A stretch of DNA of 34,387 bases from a virus (IMGVR_UViG_3300045988_107065); one strand, 5' to 3'. Positions 872-34,237 are shown, counted from the stretch's first letter. A program made the numbers and translations. The notes: a model not told the origin generated them from the letters alone.

Positions 872-886
872 TTACCTTTCGGGTAA
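872..886. promoter_or_regulatory. TTACC-N5-GGTAA palindrome (site 1), intergenic between tail fibre and the LexA-box gene
   Basis: attaccTTTCGggtaat, perfect inverted repeat. Confidence 0.5.
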
Positions 887-923
887 TTTGCAAAACGTGC
901 TGGATAGCAAACAAATTATTTGA

Positions 924-943
924 TACTGTATAAATATACAGTT
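924..943. promoter_or_regulatory. LexA (SOS) box
   Basis: TACTGTATAAATATACAGTT, 18/20 match to TACTGTATATATATACAGTA; CTGT-N8-ACAG core at 926-941; about 20 bp upstream of the ATG at 963. Confidence 0.7.
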
Positions 944-962
944 ATTGCATGGAGAAGATAAG

Positions 963-1220
963 ATGCAGCAGTATCACTATCCACTGGAAGACGGATTTAC
1001 CGAAAGGATTCACACGCCGGGAGGCGTCAGGTCACTGGTGGAGGGATCGCACTTGATGAAATTACTCCGGGATCTCGATAAGGATGGATTTAATGTCGAT
1101 GGCCCACTTGCCGAACTGACTGCACTGATTAACTACGTCACCAGCTCACAGATGTCTATGCAGGATCTGCAAACACATCTCGACTATTGTGCCGAACAAT
1201 TACGAAAACAAACCAGATAA
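963..1220 (+). CDS. Small protein (85 aa) homologous to the C-terminal domain of the adjacent Bro-N protein; candidate SOS-induced antirepressor
   Basis: ATG at 963 with GGAG 8 nt upstream (track ORF starts at an upstream TTG, 945); about 40% identity over about 75 aa with the C-terminus of the 1536-2231 product. Confidence 0.6.
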   Translation: MQQYHYPLEDGFTERIHTPGGVRSLVEGSHLMKLLRDLDKDGFNVDGPLAELTALINYVTSSQMSMQDLQTHLDYCAEQLRKQTR

Positions 1221-1251
1221 GGTTTGCAATTACCAAAAGGAGTGCTTATAT

Positions 1252-1266
1252 TTACCTTTGCGGTAA
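1252..1266. promoter_or_regulatory. TTACC-N5-GGTAA palindrome (site 2)
   Basis: atttaccTTTGCggtaaat. Confidence 0.45.
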
Positions 1267-1301
1267 ATTTACATCGCACTCCTCTTGTGCCATAGTAATC
1301 G

Positions 1302-1339
1302 GGCACTGGCAAAATCCAGTGCCGGGATTGGCGTCCCGG
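1302..1339 (+). other. Two tandem perfect hairpins (8 bp stem with CAAAAU loop; 6 bp stem with UUGGCG loop)
   Basis: ggcactgg-caaaat-ccagtgcc and ccggga-ttggcg-tcccgg read directly from sequence. Confidence 0.5.
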
Positions 1340-1358
1340 ATTACTAAAAGGCGCATTC

Positions 1359-1378
1359 ACCGCGCAAGCGGTTTTTTT
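1359..1378 (+). terminator. Rho-independent terminator
   Basis: accgc-gcaa-gcggt followed by TTTTTT. Confidence 0.6.
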
Positions 1379-1478
1379 ATGCGTATAGCACGGCCACATT
1401 CGTATTATGGTGGGCTGTGTGGGGGCACCGAAAGGTGCGCCGGGTCCTTTTAGCCGGTTACGCCAACCCTGCACAGTT

Positions 1479-1509
1479 CACCACCAACCGATTGGCGTCG
1501 GTAGTGGTG
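1479..1509 (+). other. Extended hairpin with UUGGCG loop in the Bro-N gene leader
   Basis: caccac-ca-accga-ttggcg-tcggt-a-gtggtg; same loop sequence as the hairpin at 1322-1339. Confidence 0.45.
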
Positions 1510-1535
1510 ATTAACCAGACTAAAAGGTAATCACT

Positions 1536-2231
1536 ATGACAGCTACAAAAAGCACGTCCATTTTTTCTTTCGAATCCCAAGCCGATATACGAGTAATCGT
1601 CATTAATGGTGAGCCATGGTTTATCGCTTCAGATGTTTGTCGGGCTATAGGCATAGCAAACCATCGAGATGCTGTTCGAAAACTTGATGATGATGAGAAG
1701 GGCGTCGCTTCAACCGACACCCCTGGCGGTGAACAAGAATCGATCATCATCTCCGAGTCAGGCCTCTACACACTGATCCTCCGCTGCCGCGACGCAGTGA
1801 CACCAGGCACTATCCCCTACCGCTTTCGTAAATGGGTTACAGGTGAGGTTCTTCCTCAGATCCGCCGCACCGGAAGCTACATTAAAAACTCGCTCCCGCA
1901 GGAAGAACGCATAAAGATGGTTGCCGACCAGGTAGCCAACGCCACAGCATCAGCAGTGATGCAGGCAATGAAGATAGAGAACAAAACCTACAGCGCCCCA
2001 CTGAAGCCCGGCTACCGCAGCCTGATTCATTCTCCGTCTGGTGTTCTCGGCCTGACGGAAAACTCACTGCTGATGAATCTGCTGAACCAGTTACAGGAAG
2101 ACGGGCACGACGTATCGGGTGCGGCGGCGGAGCTGACCACCATGTTCTGCTACATTGTTGGTGTGAGCAAATGCCTGCGTGATATCCAGACCCACGCGGA
2201 GTACATCAACGACAAGGCAGGGTTCTTCTGA
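1536..2231 (+). CDS. Bro-N domain protein (phage antirepressor-type, KilAC/Ant-like)
   Basis: N-terminal Bro-N signature (VINGEPWFIASDVCRAIGI...); C-terminal domain paralogous to the 963-1220 product. Confidence 0.8.
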   Translation: MTATKSTSIFSFESQADIRVIVINGEPWFIASDVCRAIGIANHRDAVRKLDDDEKGVASTDTPGGEQESIIISESGLYTLILRCRDAVTPGTIPYRFRKWVTGEVLPQIRRTGSYIKNSLPQEERIKMVADQVANATASAVMQAMKIENKTYSAPLKPGYRSLIHSPSGVLGLTENSLLMNLLNQLQEDGHDVSGAAAELTTMFCYIVGVSKCLRDIQTHAEYINDKAGFF

Positions 2232-2303
2232 CGGGCGGCGGCACAGGGATGTGCCTTTAAATAATTCTGTACAGATTGCAGACTGTGGGTGAATAGCGTA
2301 CTA

Positions 2304-2318
2304 TTACCTTAAAGGTAA
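2304..2318. promoter_or_regulatory. TTACC-N5-GGTAA palindrome (site 3), abutting the SD of the following ORF
   Basis: ttaccTTAAAggtaa followed by AGGAGG. Confidence 0.45.
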
Positions 2319-2330
2319 AGGAGGCGCGAT

Positions 2331-2498
2331 ATGACAGCGTTGAAAAATCGTACTCAGCACAATGAACAAGCCAAGCAATGCTGGGATGTCATTGGAAAAG
2401 TTATGCTTGGCCGCGCAAGCAAAGAGCGCGACAAGGATATGGTTTACCAGACAGGAACATCTTTCAGCGACTTCAAGGCGGCATTTCGCTCCAAATAG
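2331..2498 (+). CDS. Small hypothetical protein (55 aa), below the ORF-track size cutoff
   Basis: ATG with AGGAGG at ideal spacing; MTALKNRTQHNEQAKQCWDVIGKVMLGRASKERDKDMVYQTGTSFSDFKAAFRSK. Confidence 0.5.
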   Translation: MTALKNRTQHNEQAKQCWDVIGKVMLGRASKERDKDMVYQTGTSFSDFKAAFRSK

Positions 2499-2518
2499 AA
2501 GCACATCAGGAGTTTTCC

Positions 2519-2959
2519 TTGAAGTTTAACATTAGAATATCTAATAGTTTTCTACATGGGGAAAGCAACACCCCTTTCGCTGTAGACGGACCTTTCCTTA
2601 CTGATGATGAAATAAAAATCATACAAAGTTTTTTAGAGGATGTTGCCAATGGAAGGGCGCTTGTTGGAAAAAACAAGCCCTCGTGGGTTGATGATAACCA
2701 TGATAAAATTCCCGGCTCAGACAATTATGAGCAAGAGAATTATTGGCATTATCATTGTGGGCCAACATGGTATCCAAACACATTTAAGAATTATACCATT
2801 AACTTAAATTTCAACCCTGGCGGAAGGCATTCTAATGAATGCATTCATTATGCAAAAAATGATAATGAAATTGTCATTGTTGGATTTTCAAGAGAACACA
2901 TACCTTTCCTTTCATCAGATGGAAACAACAATCCGCTTTTTAATGATGAAGAAGAATAG
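2519..2959 (+). CDS. Hypothetical protein (about 146 aa), AT-rich accessory gene
   Basis: Probable TTG start at 2519 with AGGAG 6 nt upstream; the track's upstream extension (2378) overlaps the small ORF in another frame. Confidence 0.55.
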   Translation: MKFNIRISNSFLHGESNTPFAVDGPFLTDDEIKIIQSFLEDVANGRALVGKNKPSWVDDNHDKIPGSDNYEQENYWHYHCGPTWYPNTFKNYTINLNFNPGGRHSNECIHYAKNDNEIVIVGFSREHIPFLSSDGNNNPLFNDEEE

Positions 2960-2979
2960 CCCGCGCTGCGGGCTTTTTT
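2959..2979 (+). terminator. Rho-independent terminator
   Basis: gcccg-cgctg-cgggc followed by TTTTTT, directly after the stop codon. Confidence 0.65.
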
Positions 2980-3051
2980 GTGGGCGAAACAAAAGTCAGT
3001 GCTACACTCATTGACGCCACATTGAGGTGGCTTATAGATGGAAATTTCACA

Positions 3052-3213
3052 ATGAAAAAAGCATTTGCTGCACTGTTCGTTTTGTTGTCTCTGGTAGCTT
3101 CAACTCAGGCCTTTGCCGGTCGTTGTCAGCACGACAGCGACACTGCTGCTGACGGCTCCCGCTGCGGTGGGCGTTCTGCGGATTCCCGTCCGGGCGGCGG
3201 TGGCATTCGTTAA
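3052..3213 (+). CDS. Small secreted protein (53 aa) with N-terminal signal peptide and Gly/Arg-rich tail
   Basis: MKKAFAALFVLLSLVASTQAFA signal-peptide-like N-terminus; weak RBS. Confidence 0.45.
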   Translation: MKKAFAALFVLLSLVASTQAFAGRCQHDSDTAADGSRCGGRSADSRPGGGGIR

Positions 3214-3218
3214 AAACA

Positions 3219-3237
3219 AGGCCGCGAAAGCGGCCTG
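3219..3237 (-). terminator. Hairpin/terminator downstream of the minus-strand gene 3250-3708
   Basis: ggccgc-gaaa-gcggcc; on the minus strand followed by a T-rich run (TTGTTTTT). Confidence 0.45.
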
Positions 3238-3249
3238 TGACATGTCACG

Positions 3250-3708
3250 CTACTTGCGAAATCTTTCTTTACCCTTCCAGCCAGTAGATGTTAGTTCAGG
3301 ATGAATGGTTCCCAATATAAAGCCAACCATAGCGGAGCGAGGATCTTCTATTTTATCCGTTAATTCTTCGGCATAACTCACAGGCAACCAAGCAACAAGA
3401 TCACCAATCCTCAGCTTTGGTCCTTTGCTGTAAGATGAATCGGCAATAACAAAAAATCCACCATCAGCTGAGCACACCTTCAGCATTGCCCTTTGTCTTC
3501 CAGAATCCAGCAAAACTGGCTGTTCCCCACTGGGACCAGGTATGATGATGGCTGGCATTGGTTTATTGGCTGAAAGGCTTGTGTCAAGATACTTACACGC
3601 ATACTCAAAAGCTGAAAAGTTATCCTTAAAGATAAGAGGTTGAATTTTATTGCTAACCTCCTTACCACCGATTAATCTGTTGATCATCTTCTTGAACATA
3701 AAGGTCAC
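3250..3708 (-). CDS. Hypothetical protein (152 aa)
   Basis: Long ORF in AT-rich island; no recognisable motif. Confidence 0.5.
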   Translation of the reverse strand: MTFMFKKMINRLIGGKEVSNKIQPLIFKDNFSAFEYACKYLDTSLSANKPMPAIIIPGPSGEQPVLLDSGRQRAMLKVCSADGGFFVIADSSYSKGPKLRIGDLVAWLPVSYAEELTDKIEDPRSAMVGFILGTIHPELTSTGWKGKERFRK

Positions 3709-3711
3709 CTA

Positions 3712-4152
3712 ATGATTAAGCCGATGCACGCTATTACAGCTACCGTTTTGTTTATCCTACCAATTTTTTCGTTTGCAAACGACATATGTTTTAAGAATTT
3801 AATAAATGAGGATATGTGTGCACATGCAAACAAAATTGCATCAGAAGCAGGAAAGTCTCTTCCCATAAAATTGAATGATAATATGTCTATTGTTTCAATA
3901 AATGCAATACTAAACAAACTTTTAGTTGTAGCGCATCTTAATTACAACAACAGCTATTTATCAAAAGTTTATAATGGTGATGTAACCTTAGAAAATAAAT
4001 TAAAGAGTGTAATGCGAAATTATTCAAAATCGAGCATTTGCTCCAACAGGCAAATGAAAGCATTTATTCACCTTGGCGGAGAGATTGAGTATAGGTATGT
4101 ATTTAGTGATGGCAATATATTTGATACATACGCCATCACTAATTGTGAATAG
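3712..4152 (+). CDS. Hypothetical secreted/periplasmic protein (146 aa) with signal peptide
   Basis: Hydrophobic N-terminus (AITATVLFILPIFSFA); AT-rich; stop codon abuts the stop of the convergent gene at 4153. Confidence 0.55.
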   Translation: MIKPMHAITATVLFILPIFSFANDICFKNLINEDMCAHANKIASEAGKSLPIKLNDNMSIVSINAILNKLLVVAHLNYNNSYLSKVYNGDVTLENKLKSVMRNYSKSSICSNRQMKAFIHLGGEIEYRYVFSDGNIFDTYAITNCE

Positions 4153-7100
4153 CTATTTCATCTGCTCTTCAACTTTATTTAGTAACGGTGATATCGCCCA
4201 CAGGTTCTGAAAAGGTAGCATTTTACGGACCGCGTGGGTTTGCTGGCTGTCAAATTCTCCGTTAAGTACACCATTCGCAACCGTCGCGGCATCACCGCCA
4301 AGATCAAAGGTAGGACCAAGTAAAGCACCAATAGCATTACGACTCTGAAACCTTGATACCGGAGGCGCACCAAACATCGCGCCAAGACCAAACCTACCGC
4401 CGCTTATGTTCTCAACGGTATTCAGCGGCTCAGAGAGCCAGCCAAGCATTCCGCCCCGGTCGATCCCCTCTTTCACAAGGTTATTCCAGCTGTAGTCGAT
4501 ATCGCGACCGCTTAACTTCTGTTTCATCATATAGACCATTGAGCCAAGCGCAATCGTGCCAAGCGCACCAAGATAGAATGCAGCATCGCCCTGCTGGATA
4601 CCAGATACTAGCACCCTGTTATGCTGTGCGAAGATAAACGTTTTGAACTGCGTGATCATCTTCCAGCCTTCTTTACTAAAAAACAGCGGTGTATCACCTA
4701 CGCCAGGCGTTACAATCACTGAGTCTACATCTTTCAGCACTGCAGACTGGAAAATCTCTCTAGCGAAACGGTCATCCCACAGATGACTATGCCCGGTTAA
4801 CAGCCCGTCCATATCCTCTCCGTGCTTCCCGAATTGCTCCCCGATTCGACGCAGAACATCTTCATTGATGCCGACCTGTGCCATCTTCCGCATTTCACTT
4901 TTGGAGAGCGTGCCACCAGCAGAAACTTGGCGAGCCGCGTCAAGTATCCTCGACTGCACTATCATCCCGGACCATGATTTAAGTGCGCTGTTCCACTGAT
5001 TCATCAGCGTCCAGTTACCGAATTTCTGCGTCATCCAGTTCAGACCTCGCTCAGCGGCGCTTCTCCGGCTATAGGGGTCAGTAAGATCCGCTATAGCCTT
5101 TGTACGCGTAGACAGGACATAATCAAGCCCAACGGCCATTTCTCGCAAATCCCTGGTTGCAATTTTCACTGAGTCCATATTTTTAAGCATGCTTACCATT
5201 GGTCCGAGAGATTTTCTCAGGCCATGCTGCATCATCGGTCGCATCAGATCAGTTGCAGCGGAGACAGTCATTCCACCAAGCAAACGGAGGAAGTTAATAT
5301 TCCTAGCAACTCGCCCGGCACGAACAAAGAAACTGCGTGGATCTTGAGGTGCGCCGTAAGTACCAAGCAGTCGATCACGCATAGCCGTAATATCCCTAAT
5401 ATCAGCCTCCCGTTGCTTCTCAAGAACTGCACGTCGTTTAGGTGTTTTAGCCTCTTTTATTAGCCGGGTATATTCCTCACTAACCTGACGGATTTGCTCC
5501 CCCATATCTTTACGGCCAAACTGCGCAGTCAGCTCAATTTCTGGTGCCACCTGCCGGAGATAACTTTCCATGATGTAGTTAACATCTGATTCAAGAAAAT
5601 CTTCTATACGCTCATCAGGAATAAGCAGCGTTCTGCTTTTAGTGAAACCAGCCCGACCAACGAGTCTCTCTGGGATAATATCGGCTGGTACAAGCCCGGA
5701 AGGTGCGCCTATTATTTTATTCACGATCTCGTCAGCAGCGTCCTCTGCTTCCTCTCGGGATAGAGGCTCCATCTGCTTCAGTGCTCGTTCGCGGCTTGCA
5801 TTCAGCCTTGTGGTTGAATTTGCCCGTTTTTGCAGTCGGCGAAGCTCAGAACGATATTTCCGTGGATTATCCAGCAACTCCATATGGCGCTGATAGACAG
5901 GAAGCTCACTCTTTGCCTGCGCTATATCATCAAGGCGTGTTTTAAGGTCAGAGCTTTCTTTCATCATTCTTGCCTGAAGTTTTTCTGATGAAGTCTCGGC
6001 CAACTCTTTTTCTATTCTTGTAAGACGCGCCTGTGTGTCAGTCTCCTGAGATATAAGCTTATTTCGTTTATCCAGTTCTTCCATGAGTAGAATTTTTTTA
6101 CCAGACCATTTCTCCGCTTCAGCGATTTCACTAGCGAGAGCATCAGCGCGCGGTGCTGATTCCTCTGCAGTTTTTAGCAATGAATTTATCTTTTCAATTC
6201 GCTTACCTGCTTTGTCAGCACCTTTGGCACTAATCCCTTGTATCCAGTTGGCAATTCGCCCTCTGAATTCAGTGCGGTCGGAAAGTATCTTATCGAACTT
6301 ATAAATGCGGGGAAGATAACTTTTCGCCGTCACGACATCGATATCCTCAGGAAGGATCCCCAGTTCCTGCATACGGGCTTTTGTGGTCTCAAAAATGGGG
6401 CGGATTCTGGCGGCTGCTTGTGAAACCTCAGGAATATCACTCTGATCACCACGGCGCATAGCCATGCCAACAGCTTCATTGAAATCAATAAAGCTCATCC
6501 TCTTCACGCCGCGGGCGCTGACAGATTTGCTGTACTGCTGGTAAGCATCACGAGTAGCTTCCATCTGCTTATAAAGCATGGCATCGTATTGCTTAATCTT
6601 AGTCTCGACTGCCGTAAACGTAGCCAACCCCTCATCATTTTTGGCGAAGAAATAGTTATTTTCGGCAAGCTGCTGGTTAATCTGACGGGAAACAAGAGAT
6701 GGTGATTGCGCCAAGCGGCCAGCAGGAGTGACACTCAACGTTTTGTTAGCAAGTCCAAGTCCAGCGAGCTGTTCCTGATCGAGTGTGGTATTGAAAACCT
6801 GAGCTGCACCAATGCTTTGAGGAGAATCCATACCTCGCAAATGATTACCTACTGAGTTAACCACTGCCTCGCGCGCGCTAGGTCCAGCAAGTAGCTGTGC
6901 ACCAGCACCAAGGATCCCACCAACGAGAGCATCAATAACAACGTTCGATACGCTCTCCATCGGTGAGCGAGCTTCCTGAGTGGCCTGTAATGCGGCTTCT
7001 GATACTCCCCCACCAGCAGCATTCGCCAAGGCAAAACGCCCTGCCGTCTCAGCAATACTTCCTCCACGCGCTACCGCCCCTACAGGGATGAACATTGCAG

Positions 7101-19487: not shown

Positions 19488-19577
19488 ATCAATGACTCCG
19501 TACGCAATTAAATTATTACCAATTTAACCACATATGATTTATTTATCGTAGACAGTTGACATTTAACGCACGAATTA

Positions 19578-19592
19578 TTACCTTTCAGGTAA
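19578..19592. promoter_or_regulatory. TTACC-N5-GGTAA palindrome (site 4) just downstream of a TTGACA hexamer (19556-19561)
   Basis: attaccTTTCAggtaag. Confidence 0.45.
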
Positions 19593-19914
19593 GCAAATGG
19601 TTCATTCCGGTTATTAACCTGACTGGCTTGTCGTTAAATTGAACAGGTGGAGTGAGCTTTTATTTTGAGCAGTACGGCGTATGGCACATGCGCCGATAGC
19701 GGTCTGGATACGTTTAAGGGGCACCCTCCCTTGCTCGGGCAAACGAACCAGGTAGCCGGAATGTGCAAGTCGAGCGGTTTTATTCCGCGCACGGGGATTC
19801 ACCATCCCGGCGATTCGGTGTGACGCCTCGGAAGAGACGAGGGTACAACGATGAGAGCATTTATGGAGCCGCGACAAAGTGTGGCGCCTTAACAGGCTAA
19901 GTGCTCTCAGCGTT

Positions 19915-19991
19915 GTGGCATTAGCTCAGTTGGACAGAGCAACCGCCTTCTAAGCGGTTGGTCGCAGGTTCGAATCCTGCATGCCACGCCA
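19915..19991 (+). tRNA. tRNA-Arg (anticodon UCU)
   Basis: Cloverleaf folded by hand: acceptor GTGGCAT/ATGCCAC, D-arm GCTC/GAGC, anticodon stem ACCGC/GCGGT with loop CTTCTAA, T-arm GCAGG-TTCGAAT-CCTGC, discriminator G and encoded CCA; 77 nt. Confidence 0.9.
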
Positions 19992-20034
19992 GAATCACGC
20001 CTAAGGACCGTGATGCCAGAAGTTCCAGGGGCTT

Positions 20035-20077
20035 GGCGGTGATGGTTTCCCTTGAAGGACTATCACCGCCCTTTTTA
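20035..20077 (+). terminator. Rho-independent terminator downstream of the tRNA
   Basis: 9 bp stem ggcggtgat/atcaccgcc followed by CTTTTT. Confidence 0.6.
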
Positions 20078-20154
20078 CAGCAGGACGCCATTGCGATGAC
20101 TTCATGCTGTAAACCAGTACAGCCACGGAAGGCATAACTCATTGCTTCCAGTTC

Positions 20155-20178
20155 GCCCGGTTCGCCGGGCATTTTTTT
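20155..20178 (+). terminator. Second rho-independent terminator
   Basis: gcccgg-ttcg-ccgggc followed by ATTTTTTT. Confidence 0.65.
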
Positions 20179-22112: not shown

Positions 22113-22705
22113 TGATTACCATCCTGACGTTCTTTGAGTCGCTTCCTGGCTGCCGCTATGCGATCAGCAATTGTCACATTCACATTAACATCCAGGCGTT
22201 CTTTGAATGCGTTGACGTCGACGTGCTTACCAATCAGTTCGAGGTTCTTCACCTTGTCAGGCCATTTAATTTTTTTGAGGATTGTCTCTATCGAATCCTC
22301 GTTCATGTTCATGATGGTCGATGACAGATCAAAGCCACTAAGCGTAGTGCGCCAGATTTTCGGCCACTCACGGATTGGTTTAAGGCTCCCATCGTCGTTG
22401 AGGATATCGATCACGTCCATCTGGTCGATCTCCACCAGGCGCATGAGAACGTAATCAGCACTGACGCGCATTCGTTTGTTGCGCTCCTCCATCAACTCGG
22501 CAATCCGTTTTTGAATGCGTTCATCGCGCATCATGACACTGGCTTTAACTGCCGCTGTATTTGGGGAGAATCCTGCGTTAATCGCTGCCTGAGTCTGGTT
22601 TTCAGGCGTTTTGATGTATGACTGGCAATAAGCCTCCTGCATTGCTGTGAGCGGCTTAAATTGCGTTGATTTGCGTTTATAGGTTTTAGGTTCAGCAGGC
22701 ATCAT
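22109..22705 (-). CDS. Terminase small subunit
   Basis: Conserved small-terminase N-terminal region (AYCQSYIKTP...AAINAGFSPNTAAVKASVMMRDERIQ); probable ATG at 22705 (track ORF extends to a TTG at 22783). Confidence 0.75.
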   Translation of the reverse strand: MMPAEPKTYKRKSTQFKPLTAMQEAYCQSYIKTPENQTQAAINAGFSPNTAAVKASVMMRDERIQKRIAELMEERNKRMRVSADYVLMRLVEIDQMDVIDILNDDGSLKPIREWPKIWRTTLSGFDLSSTIMNMNEDSIETILKKIKWPDKVKNLELIGKHVDVNAFKERLDVNVNVTIADRIAAARKRLKERQDGNQ

Positions 22706-22823
22706 AACCACCGTGGTAATAGTTACCGTTGTGGTAATAGTACCATGCAAAATAAAGCCGCCATAGTTGGCGGCAGTATTCAAAACCCATCAAATTCATC
22801 ATGCATAATCTACTCGTAACATG

Positions 22824-23162
22824 TCACACTATTAATTTCGTTTCATGCCAGCCTTTAGTCACCCAGCATTGCGAGTCACCATTACACGGGCATGAATTAA
22901 CTGGAACTCTCTCGCCGCACTTACCGCAACGTTTTCTGCTGATCGATTTTATACGCCCGTGCACGCGTGCATCATCCTGGCGGATCAATAACGCTATATA
23001 CTCACCAAATTCGTAAGGCGCACGCCCGGGGCGACGCGTGGCACAGTTACGCTCCAGCATTTCAATTTCCTGAGCATCAAGCACAATCTCCAGCTTACGC
23101 ACACCAGATGCAGCTTGTCTGGCTCTCTGAGCGGCTTTGCGCTCTGCTGCTGATTTAGCCAT
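22824..23162 (-). CDS. Cys-rich putative zinc-binding protein (112 aa) immediately upstream of the packaging genes
   Basis: C-terminal CGKCGE...CPC motif; basic N-terminus; ATG at 23162. Confidence 0.4.
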   Translation of the reverse strand: MAKSAAERKAAQRARQAASGVRKLEIVLDAQEIEMLERNCATRRPGRAPYEFGEYIALLIRQDDARVHGRIKSISRKRCGKCGERVPVNSCPCNGDSQCWVTKGWHETKLIV

Positions 23163-23189
23163 CAATATTTACCTTTATCGCGAACATAC

Positions 23190-24950: not shown

Positions 24951-25011
24951 CTTTACCCTCGCTTATCCACATAACTTATTGATTACATTGATAACTAAAA
25001 AGATCGTCGAT

Positions 25012-25620: not shown

Positions 25621-25970
25621 AGTTCCTCAACCTCCCATCCACCACCGAGCTTTTTAGGTTTTGGATAAGCAACCTGAAAGACAAACGGATAGCTGTCTGC
25701 CGCAACCTTCATCTTGACTCTCGCATCGTCAGTAAAGACTGACTTACTTCCCTTAACGTCCACCATCACCAACTGCCCGTCAGCCAACATCACGGCAAAA
25801 TCTACAGTCAGGAAGCAGTTGTCAGCTAATCGCAGCTTGATACCCTCAAATCGATACCAGGCGATTTCCCCTGCACGTTTACGCAGCTCAAGGTGCTGGC
25901 AATACGCAGATTCTGTTTTGTTCATCTGGCCTGTTTTGAGTCGACCAAGAGCCTGTATCTGTTTTCTCAT
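25617..25970 (-). CDS. Small phage protein (117 aa), possible PD-(D/E)XK-fold nuclease (DUF1064-like)
   Basis: TVDFAV...VDVKG arrangement resembles a D...(D/E)-x-K nuclease core; assignment tentative. Confidence 0.4.
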   Translation of the reverse strand: MRKQIQALGRLKTGQMNKTESAYCQHLELRKRAGEIAWYRFEGIKLRLADNCFLTVDFAVMLADGQLVMVDVKGSKSVFTDDARVKMKVAADSYPFVFQVAYPKPKKLGGGWEVEEL

Positions 25971-25973
25971 GAT

Positions 25974-25988
25974 TTACCTCTGAGGTAA
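25974..25988. promoter_or_regulatory. TTACC-N5-GGTAA palindrome (site 5), overlapping the RBS of the 25617-25970 gene
   Basis: atttaccTCTGAggtaatt. Confidence 0.45.
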
Positions 25989-26035
25989 TTAAAAACCACA
26001 TAAGACACGAAATCAATAGAGTTTAGAATATTTTG

Positions 26036-26050
26036 TTACCCTACAGGTAA
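26036..26050. promoter_or_regulatory. TTACC-N5-GGTAA palindrome (site 6)
   Basis: gttaccCTACAggtaatt. Confidence 0.45.
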
Positions 26051-26087
26051 TTATCAAGGCGTAAAAAAATGCGCTATCGCGCTGGTA

Positions 26088-27685: not shown

Positions 27686-27700
27686 GATTAATCTCCGCTA

Positions 27701-27901
27701 TCAGCTTGAGTGTTGTGGGGAGGAATTAATCATGATCTGCTTAATCTCTGCCCTGATGCGACGGTTTGATTCCATGGTGCACTCAACACAGTGTCCGTTG
27801 TAAACCCAGCGTTCACTGTCATGTCCGTGCTTACATGGTTTTCCGGTGTAGTAGCGTTTAAGTCCGCGCTTTGCGGCATCAATACGTGTAATGATTTCCA
27901 T
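27701..27901 (-). CDS. Small Cys/His-rich putative zinc-ribbon protein (about 67 aa)
   Basis: GKPCKHGH...GHCVEC motif; ATG at 27901 (track ORF extends upstream). Confidence 0.4.
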   Translation of the reverse strand: MEIITRIDAAKRGLKRYYTGKPCKHGHDSERWVYNGHCVECTMESNRRIRAEIKQIMINSSPQHSS

Positions 27902-27981
27902 GGTAAGCCCTGTTATTAGTATTGGGATTACGGTTATTTTGTGCTGACACAAAAAAAAGATCAACCATATTTGGTTTTTTA

Positions 27982-27996
27982 TTACCTTTGAGGTAC
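27982..27996. promoter_or_regulatory. TTACC-N5-GGTAC palindrome (site 7, one mismatch)
   Basis: attaccTTTGAggtacg. Confidence 0.35.
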
Positions 27997-28051
27997 GAAT
28001 AGATATGAAAAGACCGCCGGATGGCGGTCTACAGAGGGTTGTGGCTGGATA

Positions 28052-28282
28052 TCATGAGTAGAAGAAGTATGCCAGTTCTGCTTTTGAGCGCAGCCATTGT
28101 CTTGATTTACAGGCTTTAAAAAGCCCATCCATCAATACCTTACCTGGCATTTTGCGCTTACCTGTTAAGTGAGTCTGGATATAGTGACTCGTCGTTCCGG
28201 CTTCCTGTGCGAAGGCTTCACGCTCATCCGGAGTAAGTGCAAGCCAGTGCTTTTTGAAATCGAAATGTCCGTTATCGCTCAT
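28052..28282 (-). CDS. Cro-like HTH DNA-binding protein (76 aa)
   Basis: HTH segment EAGTTSHYIQTHLTGKRKMP resembles Cro/YdaS-type HTH; first gene of the minus-strand operon, divergent from the repressor. Confidence 0.6.
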   Translation of the reverse strand: MSDNGHFDFKKHWLALTPDEREAFAQEAGTTSHYIQTHLTGKRKMPGKVLMDGLFKACKSRQWLRSKAELAYFFYS

Positions 28283-28318
28283 AGCTATTGCCTGATATTT
28301 ATTTCAGATAATAAATAT

Positions 28319-28381
28319 TCACCTATAAGGTAACAAAAATCAAGGATAGTTACCCATGAGGTGCATTTACCTGTTGGGTAA
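28319..28381. promoter_or_regulatory. Divergent promoter/operator region with three adjacent palindromic sites (two imperfect, one perfect TTACC-N5-GGTAA)
   Basis: tcaccTATAAggtaa (28319-28333), ttaccCATGAggtgc (28350-28364), ttaccTGTTGggtaa (28367-28381) between the divergent cro-like and repressor genes. Confidence 0.55.
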
Positions 28382-28436
28382 TATTGCTTTAAATTGAATC
28401 ATCTTCTGATTCAGATATGAGGCGATTTTCCAGAAA

Positions 28437-29021
28437 ATGAAAAGTATCCAGGACGTCCGCAGGCAAAATCTCAACGACTTGATCGACCGTGAATTCAATG
28501 GTGTTCAGACGCGGATGGCTGAAAAACTTGGAACTCAGGCAAATCTGGTAAACCGCTGGGCTCTTGGCAAGAAGGTTATCGGCGACCAGGTTGCGCGAAA
28601 AATTGAAGCTGCCGCCAATAAACCCCGTAACTGGCTTGATATCGATCGCTCGCTTTCTCAGGAAGGTTTTCAGCCTGTCGGACCAAGCGACATTGGTCAA
28701 CTGGCGGCTCACAACCTGGAACGCTGGATGAGCGAAAGCCGCGACCTTTCAACGCAGGGAAAACTTCACCGCGCATCCGGCGTCGCCCAGGTGACAATCA
28801 GCCGCCTGTTAAACAATGAGGTCAGCGTTTCCATTTCCACCCTGGAGAATGTTGCATCCGCATTCGGGCGTCACGGCTATGAATTACTGATTCACCCGCA
28901 CGACCCTGCGACTATCAACTATGACCGCTCGCGCTACGCTTTGTTACCCGAAACCGAGAAAGCAAAGATCGAAAGTTACATTGAATTTGTCATCAACCAG
29001 AACGAAAAAAACAAACAATAA
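28437..29021 (+). CDS. Repressor-like protein with two tandem XRE-type HTH domains and no peptidase domain
   Basis: Two HTH-like segments (QTRMAEKLGTQANLVNRW; ASGVAQVTISRLLNNE); no Ser/Lys S24 autocleavage motifs seen. Confidence 0.65.
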   Translation: MKSIQDVRRQNLNDLIDREFNGVQTRMAEKLGTQANLVNRWALGKKVIGDQVARKIEAAANKPRNWLDIDRSLSQEGFQPVGPSDIGQLAAHNLERWMSESRDLSTQGKLHRASGVAQVTISRLLNNEVSVSISTLENVASAFGRHGYELLIHPHDPATINYDRSRYALLPETEKAKIESYIEFVINQNEKNKQ

Positions 29022-29041
29022 AATCATATTTTTCAGTAAGT

Positions 29042-29067
29042 AAGCCGCCTTCTGGCGGCTTTTTTAT
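29042..29067 (+). terminator. Rho-independent terminator after the repressor gene
   Basis: aagccgcc-ttct-ggcggctt followed by TTTT. Confidence 0.65.
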
Positions 29068-29078
29068 TGCCTGTTCGA

Positions 29079-29093
29079 TTACCTAACGGGTAA
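29079..29093. promoter_or_regulatory. TTACC-N5-GGTAA palindrome (site 9)
   Basis: gattaccTAACGggtaatt. Confidence 0.45.
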
Positions 29094-29140
29094 TTTTTTT
29101 AACTCATATCTATTGACATCAAACCATATACGCATAATTA

Positions 29141-29155
29141 TTACCTCAACGGTAA
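29141..29155. promoter_or_regulatory. TTACC-N5-GGTAA palindrome (site 10) immediately downstream of a TTGACA (29113-29118) promoter-like element
   Basis: attaccTCAACggtaac. Confidence 0.5.
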
Positions 29156-29174
29156 CAGACCGAGGTAACAAGTT

Positions 29175-29327
29175 ATGCAGTGGAAAATCATCAACGGTTG
29201 GTACTGCGTTACTGCATGCGGATTCATGAGCTGGAAGTTCCGCACCTTACAGGAAGGCATTAAATGGGCTTTCGTCAGCAAAGAAGCTCGCGATGTGGCC
29301 AACGATAACGAGATATGGGAGGGCTGA
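29175..29327 (+). CDS. Small hypothetical protein (50 aa), first ORF of the plus-strand early operon
   Basis: ATG with GAGGTAA RBS; hydrophobic/aromatic-rich; below the track cutoff. Confidence 0.4.
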   Translation: MQWKIINGWYCVTACGFMSWKFRTLQEGIKWAFVSKEARDVANDNEIWEG

Positions 29328-29329
29328 TA

Positions 29330-29629
29330 ATGAACGTTAATCAGCAGAAAAATCTTCAAAAAATCATGCTGGCATTCGACAAGGACTACCGTCTGTCAGA
29401 ACAGCTATATGACCGACAAGTTGAACTGATTGAGAGTATCCGGCTTCATCAACTGGCATCAACTTTCGACGTTGTAACAGTTAAAGGCGTTCGCCAGGAA
29501 GTACTGGAGGCCGCTAAAGACAGCCCTGAGTTCGAAGAACTAATGGATGCCTACCGGCGCGAGGCAATGGCAATTATCGCCCGCTGGGATCTGGCTGATC
29601 AGCTTGATGGGCAGAGGGACGCGGCATGA
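29330..29629 (+). CDS. Hypothetical protein (about 99 aa) upstream of the recombination genes
   Basis: ATG directly after the preceding stop (TGATAATG); track ORF starts at 29315. Confidence 0.45.
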   Translation: MNVNQQKNLQKIMLAFDKDYRLSEQLYDRQVELIESIRLHQLASTFDVVTVKGVRQEVLEAAKDSPEFEELMDAYRREAMAIIARWDLADQLDGQRDAA

Positions 29630-30447
29630 AACCGGGAATTTATTTCGACATCAGCAACGAAGACTACCACGCCGGTGACGGCGTGAGTAAGTCGCAACTG
29701 GACATGGTTGCCAAGAATCCGGCGCTTCTTAAATGGGTTCAGGCAGCACCAGAAGACGAAGAGAAAAAGTCTGCACTGGATATGGGAACCGCATTGCACT
29801 GTCTGCTTCTGGAGCCTGGAGAGTTCGACAAACGCTTCATTGTTTCACCGAAATTCGATCGTCGGACGAAACAAGGTAAAGCTGACGAAGAGGAATTTCT
29901 TCGTGATGTGGCGGATATGGGGATTACGGTACTTGATGCCGAGCAGTGGCGGAAACTGGAGCTGATGCGTGATAGCGCAATGGCTCACCCGGCGGCACGC
30001 TGGATGCTGGAAGCACCTGGTTACTGCGAAGCATCAATGTACTGGAACGATGAAGAGACGGGGGAGTTGTGCCGAATTCGTCCAGACAAATGGCTGAACG
30101 AGCACAACGTGATCGTCGACGTGAAAAAGGTTGCAGATATGGACCGTTTTGCACGCCACATCGAGGAATTCCGCTACCACGTGCAGGACGCAATGTACCG
30201 CGAAGGCGCAATGAGGGTTACTGGTCAGCCGCATGGTTTTTTCTTTCTTGCCGTGAGCGAAAGCATTGATTGTGGTCGGTATCCGGTACGCGTGTTCGAG
30301 CTGGATGCGCAGGATGTCGATGCCGGGCACGCTCTGTTCCGCCGGGATCTGAATACCTATCACGAATGCCGCATCAATGATGAATGGGGCGGTGTGGAAA
30401 TCATTAAACGCCCTGAGTGGGCACGCAAACAGGATATGTACATATGA
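29626..30447 (+). CDS. PD-(D/E)XK recombination exonuclease (RecE C-terminal/DUF3799-like)
   Basis: N-terminal FDISNEDYHAGDGVSKSQL motif, D...DVKK nuclease core; ATGA overlap with RecT-like gene downstream. Confidence 0.7.
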   Translation: MKPGIYFDISNEDYHAGDGVSKSQLDMVAKNPALLKWVQAAPEDEEKKSALDMGTALHCLLLEPGEFDKRFIVSPKFDRRTKQGKADEEEFLRDVADMGITVLDAEQWRKLELMRDSAMAHPAARWMLEAPGYCEASMYWNDEETGELCRIRPDKWLNEHNVIVDVKKVADMDRFARHIEEFRYHVQDAMYREGAMRVTGQPHGFFFLAVSESIDCGRYPVRVFELDAQDVDAGHALFRRDLNTYHECRINDEWGGVEIIKRPEWARKQDMYI

Positions 30448-31385
30448 GCAACGACATCGCAAACATCAACGCACCAGTAGACACAGCAATCGCTGGAACT
30501 GCTGCAACTATTTTCAGCCCAGACGGCTTGAACCAACTGATGAAATTCGCCGAGGTAATGGCGCAAAGCCGCGTAACGGTACCGGCGCACCTCGCCGGGA
30601 AACCAGCTGATTGCATGGCCGTGGCAATGCAGGCTGCGCAGTGGGGAATGAACCCGTTTGCCGTGGCTCAGAAAACCCATGTTGTGAACGGCACGCTAGG
30701 TTATGAAGCCCAATTAGTAAACGCAGTTATCTCAACGATGTCGCCAACAAAAGATCGCATCAACTACGAGTGGTTCGGGCCGTGGGAACGCGTGATCGGT
30801 AAGTTTGTTGAGAAAACATCCAAAAACGGCAATCCATATATCGCACCAGGCTGGACTCTAAAAGACGAAGAAGGCTGCGGTGTTCGCGTATGGGCAACCA
30901 TGAAGGGCGAGGATCAACCTCGAGTGCTTGAGTTAATGCTGTCTCAAGCACAGGTAAGAAACTCCACACTTTGGGCCAGTGATCCGAAACAACAACTCGC
31001 ATACCTTGCGACAAAACGCTGGTCTCGCCTGCACTGTCCTGACGTAATCATGGGCGTCTACACCCCAGACGAATTACAGGAAACGGCACCGCGCGTTGAG
31101 CGAGACATTACTCCGCAAACGACCACTGCTGCGGGAATGAACAGTCTGATCAACGCTAAACCAGCGAAAAAGCCTGATGAGCAAACGCGTAAATCGGACA
31201 GCCGTGATCCAGAAGAAATGCTGATGGCCTTTACCAGCGCAGCGATGAATTACAGCACTGTCTCCGAACTGGATAAGGCTTACAAATACATTGCACAAAA
31301 ACTTTCAGATGATGACGAACTGCTGGCAAAAGCCACCGACGTTTACAGCGTTCGTCGGGAAGAATTAAACGAAACATCTATGTAA
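30444..31385 (+). CDS. recT: RecT-family single-strand annealing protein
   Basis: Sequence characteristic of the RecT family; coupled to the exonuclease gene (start ATG at 30444 overlapping the upstream TGA). Confidence 0.8.
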   Translation: MSNDIANINAPVDTAIAGTAATIFSPDGLNQLMKFAEVMAQSRVTVPAHLAGKPADCMAVAMQAAQWGMNPFAVAQKTHVVNGTLGYEAQLVNAVISTMSPTKDRINYEWFGPWERVIGKFVEKTSKNGNPYIAPGWTLKDEEGCGVRVWATMKGEDQPRVLELMLSQAQVRNSTLWASDPKQQLAYLATKRWSRLHCPDVIMGVYTPDELQETAPRVERDITPQTTTAAGMNSLINAKPAKKPDEQTRKSDSRDPEEMLMAFTSAAMNYSTVSELDKAYKYIAQKLSDDDELLAKATDVYSVRREELNETSM

Positions 31386-31434
31386 CCACCACCGCGGCGC
31401 CACGCGCGCCGCACTGCAACCAAGAGAGGTATTT

Positions 31435-31683
31435 ATGAAAGGTGCATTAGGTAAGAAGGAACTCCTGGCGGTGGTTCCACTGTCATGGAGCACTATCGAC
31501 CGTATGGAGCGCGCAGGGGAATTTCCTAAACGCTGGTATATCACCGATAAACGCTGCGCATGGAACCGTGATGAAGTTGAGCGTTGGCTTGATGAACGTC
31601 AGGCAGCAAGCCCGGCAGAGTTCCAGGGTAAAAAACCTCCTGTTCAGCAACGTGTATATCGTCCCGTGAGCAACGCGGCATGA
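31435..31683 (+). CDS. AlpA-family DNA-binding protein (excisionase/transcriptional regulator type)
   Basis: Motif LSWSTIDRMERAGEFPKRWYITDKRCAWNRDEVERWL typical of the AlpA/Vis/TorI family. Confidence 0.75.
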   Translation: MKGALGKKELLAVVPLSWSTIDRMERAGEFPKRWYITDKRCAWNRDEVERWLDERQAASPAEFQGKKPPVQQRVYRPVSNAA

Positions 31684-31792
31684 GTGTGCTGCTAAGGCAC
31701 TGGAGCAAATGGTCAGGATGGTACTTATTCCTGGCCTCTGTTTCAGCATGGCTTTATCTGCTGGCATTAATTTTCAGAGAGGGTTGGATTAA

Positions 31793-32092
31793 GTGAGAAA
31801 GTTAAGCCGACTTGAAAAATATCACATGAACAAGGTTTCAATGCGCAGTCCGTCAAAGATTGTCGCCGTTACTCCTGCGGCGATAGAGATCGAAAAACGC
31901 GCGATTGAAAGAGAGAAAAAAGGGCAGTTCCGCATTGCCGCTCACCTTTGGCTTCAGTGTATGGATGTTGCTTCTGGTGATGTTGAGCGTGCAAGGATCG
32001 CGGTTCGCAGGGACCAATGTATCACAAAAGGTAACGGCCTTCGCCGTGGCGACTATAGCGGCATAGGATGTTGTGGGGTGGTTTATGACTAA
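31793..32092 (+). CDS. Hypothetical protein (start uncertain: GTG 31793, ATG 31826 or ATG 31844)
   Basis: ORF between the AlpA-like and methyltransferase genes. Confidence 0.4.
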   Translation: MRKLSRLEKYHMNKVSMRSPSKIVAVTPAAIEIEKRAIEREKKGQFRIAAHLWLQCMDVASGDVERARIAVRRDQCITKGNGLRRGDYSGIGCCGVVYD

Positions 32093-32735
32093 GAAATACA
32101 CACTAATCTATGCAGATCCACCCTGGGTATACCGGGACAAAGCCGCAGATGGTAATCGCGGTGCCGGTTTTAAATATCCGGTTATGAGTGTGCTGGATAT
32201 CTGCCGCCTTCCTGTGTGGGATTTGGCCGATGAAAACTGTCTGTTGGCCATGTGGTGGGTGCCAACACAACCACTCGAAGCACTAAAAGTTGTTGAGGCC
32301 TGGGGATTCCGTCTGATGACCATGAAGGGATTCACGTGGATAAAATGTGGTAGTCGACAACCAGATAAACTGGTTATGGGTATGGGTCACATGACTCGCG
32401 CCAATAGTGAAGATTGCCTGTTTGCAGTAAAGGGAAAACTACCTACGCGCATTAATGCAGGGATCGTTCAGTCATTTACCGCACCGCGGCTTGAGCATTC
32501 AAGAAAACCAGATATCGTTCGTGAAAAACTTGTGCAATTGTTAGGCGATGTTTCTCGCATTGAACTGTTCGCCCGCCAGTCGTCTCATGGTTTCGATGTT
32601 TGGGGTAATCAGTGCGAAGACCCGGCAGTGCAACTACACCCTGGATACGCGTTGGATATTGCCAGATTAACAAATGCATTCAGCAATGCTCCGCTGTCAC
32701 CAACAGACAACCAGGGGCGGGAGCGTGCAGCATGA
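32085..32735 (+). CDS. MT-A70 family N6-adenine DNA methyltransferase (orphan, no cognate endonuclease in window)
   Basis: Catalytic DPPW motif (LIYADPPWVY); ATG at 32085. Confidence 0.85.
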   Translation: MTKKYTLIYADPPWVYRDKAADGNRGAGFKYPVMSVLDICRLPVWDLADENCLLAMWWVPTQPLEALKVVEAWGFRLMTMKGFTWIKCGSRQPDKLVMGMGHMTRANSEDCLFAVKGKLPTRINAGIVQSFTAPRLEHSRKPDIVREKLVQLLGDVSRIELFARQSSHGFDVWGNQCEDPAVQLHPGYALDIARLTNAFSNAPLSPTDNQGRERAA

Positions 32736-32926
32736 ACAGGGCATCACCATCAGATTTAAGGAAATGCCTTGAAACTGCAAACATGCTTGCACACAGCGGG
32801 ATCAGGTTTGTTCCAATTCCCGCTGTCACTGATGCTGAATTTGCAACACTGTCAGCAATATTCACAGATAAAATTGAATCACTGGCAGCAGAAGCCGAGA
32901 TGGAAGAAAATCAGCAGAATAATTAA
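32732..32926 (+). CDS. Small hypothetical protein (64 aa)
   Basis: ATG overlapping the methyltransferase stop (ATGA) with GGGAG upstream. Confidence 0.45.
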   Translation: MNRASPSDLRKCLETANMLAHSGIRFVPIPAVTDAEFATLSAIFTDKIESLAAEAEMEENQQNN

Positions 32927-32929
32927 ACG

Positions 32930-34180
32930 TTATTCCCCCGCCATCCATTTCTCAAACTTCGACGGGGAGAACGGAATCAGATCCGTATGCTCCCCGTCAA
33001 TCCAGGAATCAATCATATCGGCCCACTGCTGCAACATGTAGGCGCGCTGTCTGGCGTATTCCGCTTTGTTATATACGGCGCGCACACCTTTCTGCTCATG
33101 TGCCAGAGCCTTTTCAATCCAGTCTGAAGGATAACCAGCCTCATGCAATAACGTACTGGCTGTACGGCGCATATCGTGTACGGTGAAATCCTGAATATGC
33201 TCACCATCTTCATTTATTATTTTCACCGTTCTGTCGATCAGAGAGTTCAGCGCGGCATTAGATAATGGCTTCCGGAAATTGTAACGACCAGGAACCAGAT
33301 ATTCACTTCCACCAGCGCACATCTGCAACCCGACCAATATATCCTGAGCCTGTTTAGGCAGGTAAATAACATGCGCCCGGCTTCCCTTCATGCGGTCTGA
33401 AGGAATTGTCCATGTCCATTTTTTAAAATCTATTTCATCCCACGTTGCATTGGTGAATTCGCCCTTACGAACCATAGTGATAAGCACCAGTTTTAAAGCC
33501 ATTTTCATAGTGCCCATAGCACCAATGGCATCCAACGTGCGGAAGAACAGGCCAATTTCTTCTGGTGTCAGTGTTCGCTCTCGTGGTTTAAATATGGCGA
33601 TAGACGAAGGCTTAATGTCAGCCGCAGGATTAAACAAACCATGACCACGGTCATTGGCGTGACGGTATACGCTGCTGATGATCTCCCTGGCCTGCACTGC
33701 TGTTGCCCGGCCACCGCGTTCGACAATCCGGTCACACAAATCACGAACCATCGATGTGGTAATTTCAGCCATCATTTTGTTGCCAAGAACCGGAAGTATG
33801 TCACGGTCGATCACTGCCTGCTTCATTGCGCGGGTACTTTCAGCCAGGATGACGTGTTTCATATAACTGTCGGTATGTACCGCAAACGTTTCGGCACCAC
33901 GAATCTTTTTGATACCGTCACGTTTAGCCGCAGCCGGTGACTGGCCTGCTTTAAGCAGCTTCTTTGCAGCAATCAGTTCTTCCCGCGCTTCTGCCAGGCT
34001 GATACCGTCACGCCCATACTGCCCGATTACCAGTGTTTCGCGGCGACCGTTGATACGGTAGTCATAACGAAATGAGACCGTGCCTGACGTAAGCACAGCT
34101 ACATACAGCCCGTCACGATCGGAGACCTTGTACAGTTTGTCCTGCGGCTTGAGGTTTTTTAATTTTGTATCGGTAAGCAC
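32930..34180 (-). CDS. int: Tyrosine integrase, P4-type (N-terminal arm-binding domain plus catalytic domain)
   Basis: N-terminal MLTDTKLKNLKP...GLYVAV...FRYDYR arm-binding motif; C-terminal HDMRRT...VRAVYNKAEY with catalytic Tyr. Confidence 0.9.
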   Translation of the reverse strand: MLTDTKLKNLKPQDKLYKVSDRDGLYVAVLTSGTVSFRYDYRINGRRETLVIGQYGRDGISLAEAREELIAAKKLLKAGQSPAAAKRDGIKKIRGAETFAVHTDSYMKHVILAESTRAMKQAVIDRDILPVLGNKMMAEITTSMVRDLCDRIVERGGRATAVQAREIISSVYRHANDRGHGLFNPAADIKPSSIAIFKPRERTLTPEEIGLFFRTLDAIGAMGTMKMALKLVLITMVRKGEFTNATWDEIDFKKWTWTIPSDRMKGSRAHVIYLPKQAQDILVGLQMCAGGSEYLVPGRYNFRKPLSNAALNSLIDRTVKIINEDGEHIQDFTVHDMRRTASTLLHEAGYPSDWIEKALAHEQKGVRAVYNKAEYARQRAYMLQQWADMIDSWIDGEHTDLIPFSPSKFEKWMAGE

Positions 34181-34222
34181 AATTCACCCGTATAGAAACC
34201 ATTTTCATGACGGTATGAGAGT

Positions 34223-34237
34223 ATACCTTTAAGGTAA
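34223..34237. promoter_or_regulatory. ATACC-N5-GGTAA palindrome (site 11, one mismatch) upstream of the integrase gene
   Basis: atacctTTAAggtaat. Confidence 0.4.

Follow-up and report, generated by a model that had tools for sequence, protein, structure and literature searches.

The palindrome described here, TTACC-N5-GGTAA, recurs across a viral DNA of 34,387 bp (IMGVR_UViG_3300045988_107065; "the window" denotes this whole stretch), and the closest described systems are those of phages epsilon15 and SPC32H. The operator annotation for the epsilon15 repressor gp38 is reportedly owed to Kropinski et al. in 2007, and the Rep-Ant-LexA switch of SPC32H is said to have been worked out by Kim and Ryu in 2013 and Kim et al. 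in 2016, with structures deposited as PDB 5D4Z and 5D50; ant of SPC32H is reportedly under LexA control, a finding attributed to Kim and Ryu in 2013. The epsilon15 RefSeq record (NC_004775.2) holds seven 'protein_bind' features with the bound moiety 'repressor' and the note 'lysogeny', which precede terS, the head operon and the RuvC/nin-like genes, occupy the gap between gp19 and the tail-fibre gene, and, in three cases, lie downstream of the repressor gene. SPC32H Rep binds DNA through its N-terminal domain alone, dimerises through a middle domain, to which the second HTH_3-like region corresponds, and carries a C-terminal domain for tetramerisation and Ant binding (PMC9986798). The Rep tetramer binds palindromic DNA sites and the dimer binds weakly, the paired N-terminal DNA-binding domains are contributed by different dimers, and tetrameric Ant splits the Rep tetramer (PMC9638917; PMC9986798). 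The window belongs to a phiV10/epsilon15-like podovirus of E. coli (Uetakevirus) with 97–98% identity to the E. coli phage phiV10 and its relatives, and spans the N-terminal part of the tail fibre to int, with the lysis cassette and its operator lying outside. Its palindrome is the already known, genus-wide operator of the epsilon15-type repressor, in a well-preserved copy of a known switch. With high probability, the copies are operators through which Rep directly shuts off the early, replication, late, accessory and int units and from which Ant relieves it.

The window holds 10 exact copies of the palindrome; in 100 dinucleotide-preserving shuffles the expectation is 0.02 copies, and a count of 10 was never attained. 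When one mismatch is allowed, there are 14 copies against 0.66 expected, with a shuffle maximum of 3, and chance or base composition as the source of the full palindrome is ruled out by these counts. Two-mismatch copies are also in excess (22 against 9.2 expected), with 21 of the 22 in coding DNA; the words TTACC (69 against 27 expected) and GGTAA (46 against 19) are over-represented throughout the window, and the two-mismatch excess probably reflects codon or word bias and not additional sites. Pooling 110 sites from 8 genomes gives the consensus a-TTACC-t-n-W-n-a-GGTAA-t, in which each of the ten half-site positions carries 1.5–2.0 bits and the spacer almost none except for the central A/T. 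The sites of the window, with the promoter that lies between the two operators of the left operator region (OL) and the three sites of the right operator region (OR), are as follows.

872 to 886: operator, exact, ATTACCTTTCGGGTAAT, in the gap from which the tail-fibre gene (minus strand, start at 767) and ant (plus strand, start at 963) diverge; its epsilon15 ortholog is the protein_bind 'repressor' feature 19895–19911.
1252 to 1266: operator, exact, abutting the −35 element of a promoter-like TTTACA-17-(TG)CATAGT (1268–1296), whose expected transcription start fits the 5′ end of isrK (1303).
2304 to 2318: operator, exact, sharing bases with a −10-like hexamer, TACTAT, and followed closely by AAGGAGG and the ATG at 2331; it heads an accessory gene block absent from phiV10.
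19578 to 19592: operator, exact, 91 nt ahead of the gene that opens the head operon (start 19487, minus strand); orthologous to epsilon15 'repressor' feature 2931–2947; overlaps the −10 of a plus-strand promoter-like TAGACA-18-AATTAT (19549–19578) that faces tRNA-Arg.
22705 to 22719: operator, one mismatch, 3 nt before the likely terS ATG (22702, minus strand) and containing a GGTGG ribosome-binding sequence.
22723 to 22737: operator, exact, 18 bp from the 22705 site and directly after a terminator (22774–22757, minus strand); orthologous to epsilon15 'repressor' feature 12–27; a TG-TACTAT extended −10-like element after this terminator, a promoter read by eye, runs into the site.
25974 to 25988: operator, exact, holding the GAGG ribosome-binding site, 4 nt before the ATG of a DUF1064 gene (25970, minus strand).
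26036 to 26050: operator, exact, filling the spacer of a promoter-like TTGATA-16-CAAAAT (26057–26030, minus strand), 62 bp from 25974; orthologous to epsilon15 'repressor' feature 35906–35922.
27982 to 27996: operator, one mismatch, directly after the terminator of the gene in the cro position and 78 nt upstream of p42 and the replication genes; the one-mismatch form is kept in phiV10 and Tyrion.
28319 to 28333: OR site, one mismatch, within the PR-like promoter (28336–28308, minus strand) of the cro-position gene.
28350 to 28364: OR site, two mismatches, TTACCCATGAGGTGC, 17 bp from 28367; the ortholog of this degenerate site is exact in epsilon15 and SPC32H.
28367 to 28381: OR site, exact, 56 nt upstream of the rep ATG.
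29079 to 29093: OL distal operator, exact, after the rep terminator (29042–29061) and 20 bp upstream of the −35 element.
29113 to 29141, plus strand: PL-like promoter TTGACA-17-AATTAT, with 10 of 12 consensus positions, driving p39, p38, recE, recT, alpA, perC and dam.
29141 to 29155: OL proximal operator, exact, overlapping the −10 and +1 positions, 62 bp from 29079; the OL pair is orthologous to epsilon15 'repressor' features 32554–32570 and 32616–32632.
34223 to 34237: operator-like site, one mismatch, 43 nt upstream of int (start 34180, minus strand); the outer-base mismatch is retained in all relatives examined.

An earlier reading of the DNA by itself (the sequence-only reading) had listed 13 perfect or near-perfect copies, all intergenic, mostly close to transcription-unit starts and several overlapping a promoter or a Shine-Dalgarno sequence. 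All 13 coordinates hold a copy, nine of them exact (872, 1252, 2304, 19578, 25974, 26036, 28367, 29079, and 29141) and three with one mismatch (27982, 28319, and 34223); the copy at 28350 has two mismatches, and those at 22705 and 22723 had been missed. The expected excess over shuffled sequence is borne out by the counts above, and so is the intergenic bias. Under a gene map transferred from phiV10, about 7% of the window is non-coding and holds 12 of the 14 sites with at most one mismatch, the remaining two falling inside only the over-extended, TTG-started terS of phiV10. That TTG start (22783, minus strand) would read through the strong rho-independent terminator at 22774–22757 and through both palindromes, and the ATG at 22702 matches the starts that follow the palindromes in epsilon15, SPC32H and Tyrion. 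With this ATG as the start, every one of the 14 sites is intergenic, a placement with a chance probability of roughly 0.07^14. Every site lies no more than 105 nt from a start codon or RNA start, in agreement with the claimed proximity to transcription-unit starts. The claimed overlap with promoters and Shine-Dalgarno sequences was right in part, for the promoters at 29141, 26036 and 28319 and the ribosome-binding sequences in 25974 (GAGG) and 22705 (GGTGG).

Comparison of the window with its relatives shows the same motif at equivalent positions in five sequenced phages, among them epsilon15, phiV10, Tyrion and SPC32H. All seven annotated epsilon15 repressor features coincide with a TTACC-N5-GGTAA match, and window sites 22723, 19578, 872, 29079/29141 and 26036 sit where annotated epsilon15 features sit. 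The sites at equivalent places number 14 in phiV10, 15 in Tyrion and 18 in SPC32H, and 15 in epsilon15 at one mismatch or fewer. When five phages are aligned over the rep/cro and ant/tail-fibre spacers and over the stretch that follows rep, the half-sites are invariant within diverging spacers and flanks, and the TTGACA −35 element and the LexA box are likewise invariant between the E. coli clade and the Salmonella clade. The half-site, set apart from those of lambda, 434 and P22 in the sequence-only reading, is not novel and belongs to a palindrome that the epsilon15 record already labels as a 'repressor' site and that serves as the operator of the whole genus. The phiV10 database record has no operators annotated, the 2022 paper on the near-identical phage ZX5 does not name the operator sequence (PMC9782041), and full-text literature searches with the motif letters and for Uetakevirus operators returned nothing relevant. 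In Tyrion, an annotated gp39 open reading frame (34059–34271) covers both OL operators and the promoter between them, and is probably not a gene.

The proteins and the regulatory box that bear on who reads the palindrome are listed next.

28437 to 29021, plus strand: rep, 194-residue immunity repressor and inferred binder; matches PDB 5D50_A 'Repressor' (SPC32H) at E 4e-42 over residues 1–190.
963 to 1220, plus strand: ant, 85-residue antirepressor; matches PDB 5D50_E 'Anti-repressor protein' at E 4e-47 with about 88% identity.
926 to 941: LexA box, perfect, CTGTATAAATATACAG, between operator 872 and the ant start codon and invariant in the five-phage alignment.
28052 to 28282, minus strand: cro-position gene, 76 residues, possible second binder at OR; matches phrog_35 'transcriptional repressor' at E 9e-13.

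The Rep of the window is 100% identical to phiV10 p40 and 42–43% identical to epsilon15 gp38, and the NLVNRW helix at its N terminus is invariant in the Rep alignment. Pfam returns HTH_3, HTH_26 and a weak YdaS match only, with the HTH_3 match at residues 106–147, and no self-cleaving Peptidase_S24 domain in Rep, which fits induction via an antirepressor. Given the SPC32H domain layout, this 'dual HTH' (helix-turn-helix) protein would have a single DNA-reading head, and by analogy the HTH_3 match at residues 106–147 corresponds to the dimerisation domain. The binder, which had been left unknown with the dual-HTH protein as one candidate, can thus be named, since that candidate is homologous to SPC32H Rep over its full length and the epsilon15 record names the repressor. 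Binding of Rep to the sites in this phage is what we infer from the epsilon15 annotation together with secondary accounts of SPC32H. The ZX5 repressor, reported to be identical to the phiV10 one, lowered transcription of holin by 99.97% when over-expressed and left no free phage (PMC9782041), and the silencing of holin fits the phiV10 operator in front of the lysis cassette (24692).

A link between motif and Rep is also seen when relatives are collected without reference to the protein. A scan of IMG/VR by DNA alone for two palindromes 62 bp apart gave at least 120 loci, the majority of them on contigs of roughly 40 kb. A Rep homologue (50–100% identity) is present in the fetched DNA of 90; each of the remaining 30 is flanked on one side by less than 3 kb of DNA, and the scan thus yielded no counter-example. 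Rep relatives in IMG/VR number 349, and a Rep-alignment search of that database for covariation was uninformative, as the 80 returned loci all had a 100% identical Rep. In Rep homologues of 53–58% identity from other Enterobacterales, the motif is kept at terS, the nin region, OR, OL and int. The covariation set was made up of 24 GTDB loci with Rep identities of 33–75%. In loci with the helix NL[VI][NS]RW, rep is flanked on either side by TTACC-N5-GGTAA; copies upstream of rep remain in the three loci of Bordetella type (helix SLVSRY), and Providencia and Arsenophonus (helix NVISRY) have only a one-mismatch copy. Where the helix is different the motif is absent and other palindromes stand in front of rep: ATATCA-N3-TGATAT, twice, in Vogesella (helix GQASHL), TAAACC-N5-GGTTTA in a Pseudomonadales locus (helix TSLHRV) and TTACC-N8-GGTAA in Citrobacter JGM124 (helix SVVSRW). 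Across distant hosts, the motif follows the N-terminal helix of Rep.

In a lysogen, the N-terminal HTH domains of Rep would occupy each 15–17 bp palindrome and the occupied palindromes would block RNA polymerase at nearly every phage transcription unit. The predicted targets are the cro-position gene, with three sites, and the leftward recombination/alpA/perC/dam operon, with the pair flanking its promoter; the replication and nin-like genes, terS, the head operon and the tail fibre; and the accessory block, the isrK-C4-Bro module described below and int. DNA damage would lead to Ant synthesis through the LexA box on the ant promoter, and Ant would then pull Rep tetramers off the DNA, giving induction without self-cleavage of Rep. 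This arrangement agrees with the earlier assignment of the palindromes to a phage HTH protein, both in its lambda-like architecture, with a three-site rep/cro cluster and a pair flanking the leftward promoter, and in its likeness to the dispersed P1 C1 regulon, with single or paired sites before the replication, late, accessory and int units.

The paired sites show a conserved geometry. Operators are 62 bp apart at two differently built promoters, OL and the nin-like region, and 17–18 bp apart at OR and terS, and seven of the eight genomes and loci compared share the 62-bp centre-to-centre spacing. A 76-bp interval is also present in epsilon15 and SPC32H, and a Serratia locus has only a 75-bp one. 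It is plausible that one Rep tetramer bridges two palindromes 17–18 bp or 62 bp apart, as we infer from these spacings. A more elaborate proposal, in which the Rep tetramer clamps two palindromes and loops out or cages the promoter, while operators at ribosome-binding sites combine a roadblock on the DNA with a weak RNA hairpin masking the Shine-Dalgarno sequence, would amount to a single-protein, cascade-free shut-off of the whole genome; we regard this combination as rather unlikely. If it were true, the whole genus would share one operator, and immunity specificity would reside in the pairing of Rep with Ant and not in DNA recognition.

Several observations weigh against the reading of the sites as Rep operators. 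There is no good sigma-70 consensus promoter on the relevant strand at 872, 19578, 22705/22723 or 34223, and at the late and int sites Rep may silence promoters that are weak or need an activator, or may form a roadblock. Strict helical phasing was rejected as a rule for looping, as 62-bp and 75–76-bp spacings both occur. The cro-position protein always accompanies Rep and is more conserved (78–84% compared with 42% identity), and because both travel together, neither co-occurrence nor covariation can separate Rep from it as the reader of the palindrome. The possibility that the cro-position protein is the main and sole binder, acting as a lytic repressor with Rep binding elsewhere, draws on this conservation across the genus, on membership of phrog_35 'transcriptional repressor' (the protein has no PDB match by sequence), on an HTH segment, AGTTSHYIQTHLTGKRK, that is nearly invariant between the clades and so parallels the invariant half-site, and on the position of the gene next to the three-site cluster. 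However, the repressor is the protein named for these sites in the epsilon15 record, SPC32H Rep reportedly binds palindromes in DNA (PMC9638917), Rep over-expression silences lytic genes (PMC9782041), and 15 dispersed sites that include the int and antirepressor modules better suit a prophage repressor than Cro, all of which makes a sole role for the cro-position protein very improbable. A milder version, in which it shares the OR sites with Rep, is compatible with Rep as the general repressor and is quite likely, if somewhat short of an even chance.

A role for the palindromes as RNA hairpins, with a stem of 5–6 bp and a loop of 3–5 nt affecting translation, processing or termination, had been offered as the weaker alternative. 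Each 19-mer does fold at −2 to −6 kcal/mol compared with about −0.5 for shuffles, and several sites lie in 5′ leaders with a ribosome-binding sequence (25974 and 22705). What is conserved, however, is base identity (1.5–2.0 bits per stem position) and not pairing: the natural departures are one-sided and uncompensated (TCACC..GGTAA, TTACC..GGTGC, GGTAC). The hairpins are moreover of low stability, have no U-tract and face either way with respect to the genes, and some sites would hardly be transcribed, such as 29079, which lies upstream of a −35 element and just after a terminator. With no compensatory changes and some sites outside likely transcripts, the RNA-level alternative is unsupported, and its probability is minimal. 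Another regulator, or a DNA modification or restriction target, could be suspected because the phage encodes several small regulators and a methylase, the candidates being a gp49-like regulator (22824–23165), AlpA, PerC, host IHF/Fis and the phage MT-A70 methylase, and because the epsilon15 annotators put IHF sites beside some operators. The rep/cro three-site cluster with the leftward-promoter pair is nevertheless the signature of an immunity repressor, and the covariation with the Rep helix points away from these proteins, so that such a reader is scarcely probable. Restriction or methylation targets were rejected, as the sites are confined to intergenic DNA. Repression by Rep, relieved by Ant, thus remains the best explanation of the palindromes.

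Downstream of ant, operator 1252 is followed by a group of features absent from epsilon15 and SPC32H.

1303 to 1378, plus strand: isrK, an Hfq-binding small RNA (Rfam; the isrK and C4 matches score 77.9 and 77.7 bits).
1403 to 1488, plus strand: C4 antisense RNA (Rfam), in the long leader of the Bro-N gene.
1536 to 2231, plus strand: gene for a Bro-N protein (Pfam Bro-N, E 2e-21).

This layout resembles P1 immI and the IsrK region of Gifsy-1, and by analogy could represent a second antirepressor-type module besides Ant. Control of the module by Rep through operator 1252 is suggested by the position of the site. Between Bro-N and the virion genes, 2331–4152 holds open reading frames of unknown function (phrog_5954, phrog_9944, and phrog_8772) that are absent from phiV10. 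An orphan half-site and its flank, ATTCTATTACC at 815–826, some 50 bp away from operator 872, are invariant in five phages; the complement of this stretch, GGTAATAGAAT, contains a TAGAAT −10-like hexamer facing the tail-fibre gene, and this could be a late tail-fibre promoter overlapped by half an operator. A tRNA-Arg gene (anticodon tct; 19915–19991, plus strand) overlaps the hypothetical p04 annotated in phiV10 (19921–20172, minus strand), and the p04 open reading frame is probably not a gene. The single RecE-RecT fusion of phiV10 (p37) corresponds in the window to two overlapping open reading frames (29626–30447 and 30417–31385), which reflects either a frameshift difference or an artefact of the phiV10 fusion. 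The window terminates exactly in the attP core (34339–34387, the reverse complement of attgagtgggaatgatt, the core sequence as given in PMC9782041), and a one-mismatch inverted copy of the core lies about 30 bp inside this end. This makes the sequence either one end of a prophage or a genome that was opened at att.

The discovery value of these results is small, as the operator is in the epsilon15 record and the structures of repressor and antirepressor are solved; the mechanism proposed by the sequence-only reading is supported and its novelty was overstated. The main value lies in annotation. Prophages of the phiV10 type are very common in E. coli, each with about 15 unannotated operators, and the terS start and probably the p04 open reading frame were mis-called because such signals were ignored. 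The sites number roughly twice those annotated in the epsilon15 record, and one operator is common to Reps as divergent as 42% identity. Together with the conserved 62-bp pairs and the isrK/C4/Bro module, the site list provides a map for studying direct silencing of late genes; the embedding of operators in ribosome-binding sites and the conserved paired geometry are also of residual note.

As far as can be read from the DNA, the window has every defining feature of the epsilon15/SPC32H Rep-operator system. With epsilon15 it shares the operator ATTACC-N5-GGTAAT, the orthologous positions at terS, the head operon, ant/tail fibre, OL, nin and int, the genus and the gene order. It differs in the low identity of Rep to gp38 given above, in having two OL sites where epsilon15 has three, in the degenerate middle OR site, and in the additional sites 1252, 2304 and 27982, which belong to modules that epsilon15 lacks. 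With SPC32H it shares homologues of Rep and Ant, the LexA box before ant, the motif at the same sites and a Rep without a self-cleavage domain, whereas the extra Bro-N/C4-type module is found in the window only. The Ant proteins of the two phages are about 88% identical, whereas the C-terminal half of Rep, reportedly the part bound by Ant, is only about 40% identical; judged from the sequences, this seems an uneven pattern for interacting partners.

When the window is compared with lambda CI/Cro, the 17-bp pseudo-palindromic operators, the three sites between the divergent repressor and cro genes (28319, 28350, and 28367) and the sites at the leftward promoter downstream of the repressor gene, overlapping −35 or −10 elements, are alike. 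In contrast, the half-site differs, Rep is not LexA-like in self-cleavage and is removed by an antirepressor, and the operators also front late, int and accessory units, which are controlled indirectly in lambda. A lambda-type CI system was rejected, as its defining C-terminal Peptidase_S24 domain is absent from the Pfam matches of Rep. The P1 C1 system is similar in that one repressor serves many scattered operators. The P1 immI operon (c4 antisense RNA, icd, and ant) is C1-controlled, and there, as in the window, an operator heads a C4 antisense RNA followed by an antirepressor-type gene. P1 has asymmetric 17-mers and an unrelated C1 protein, whereas the window has palindromes and an HTH_3/Cro-type binder, and membership of the P1 C1 regulon was rejected, as the sites are palindromic and Rep is of the HTH_3 type. 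The stoperators of mycobacteriophage L5 gp71 are also numerous repressor sites in short intergenic gaps, some of them downstream of promoters near ribosome-binding sites, but they are asymmetric 13-mers in one orientation that act on elongating polymerase, whereas nothing in the window shows a block of elongation. The window thus combines OR and OL regions of lambda type and genome-wide scattering of operators as in P1 with an SOS-controlled antirepressor as in SPC32H, coliphage 186 and Gifsy.

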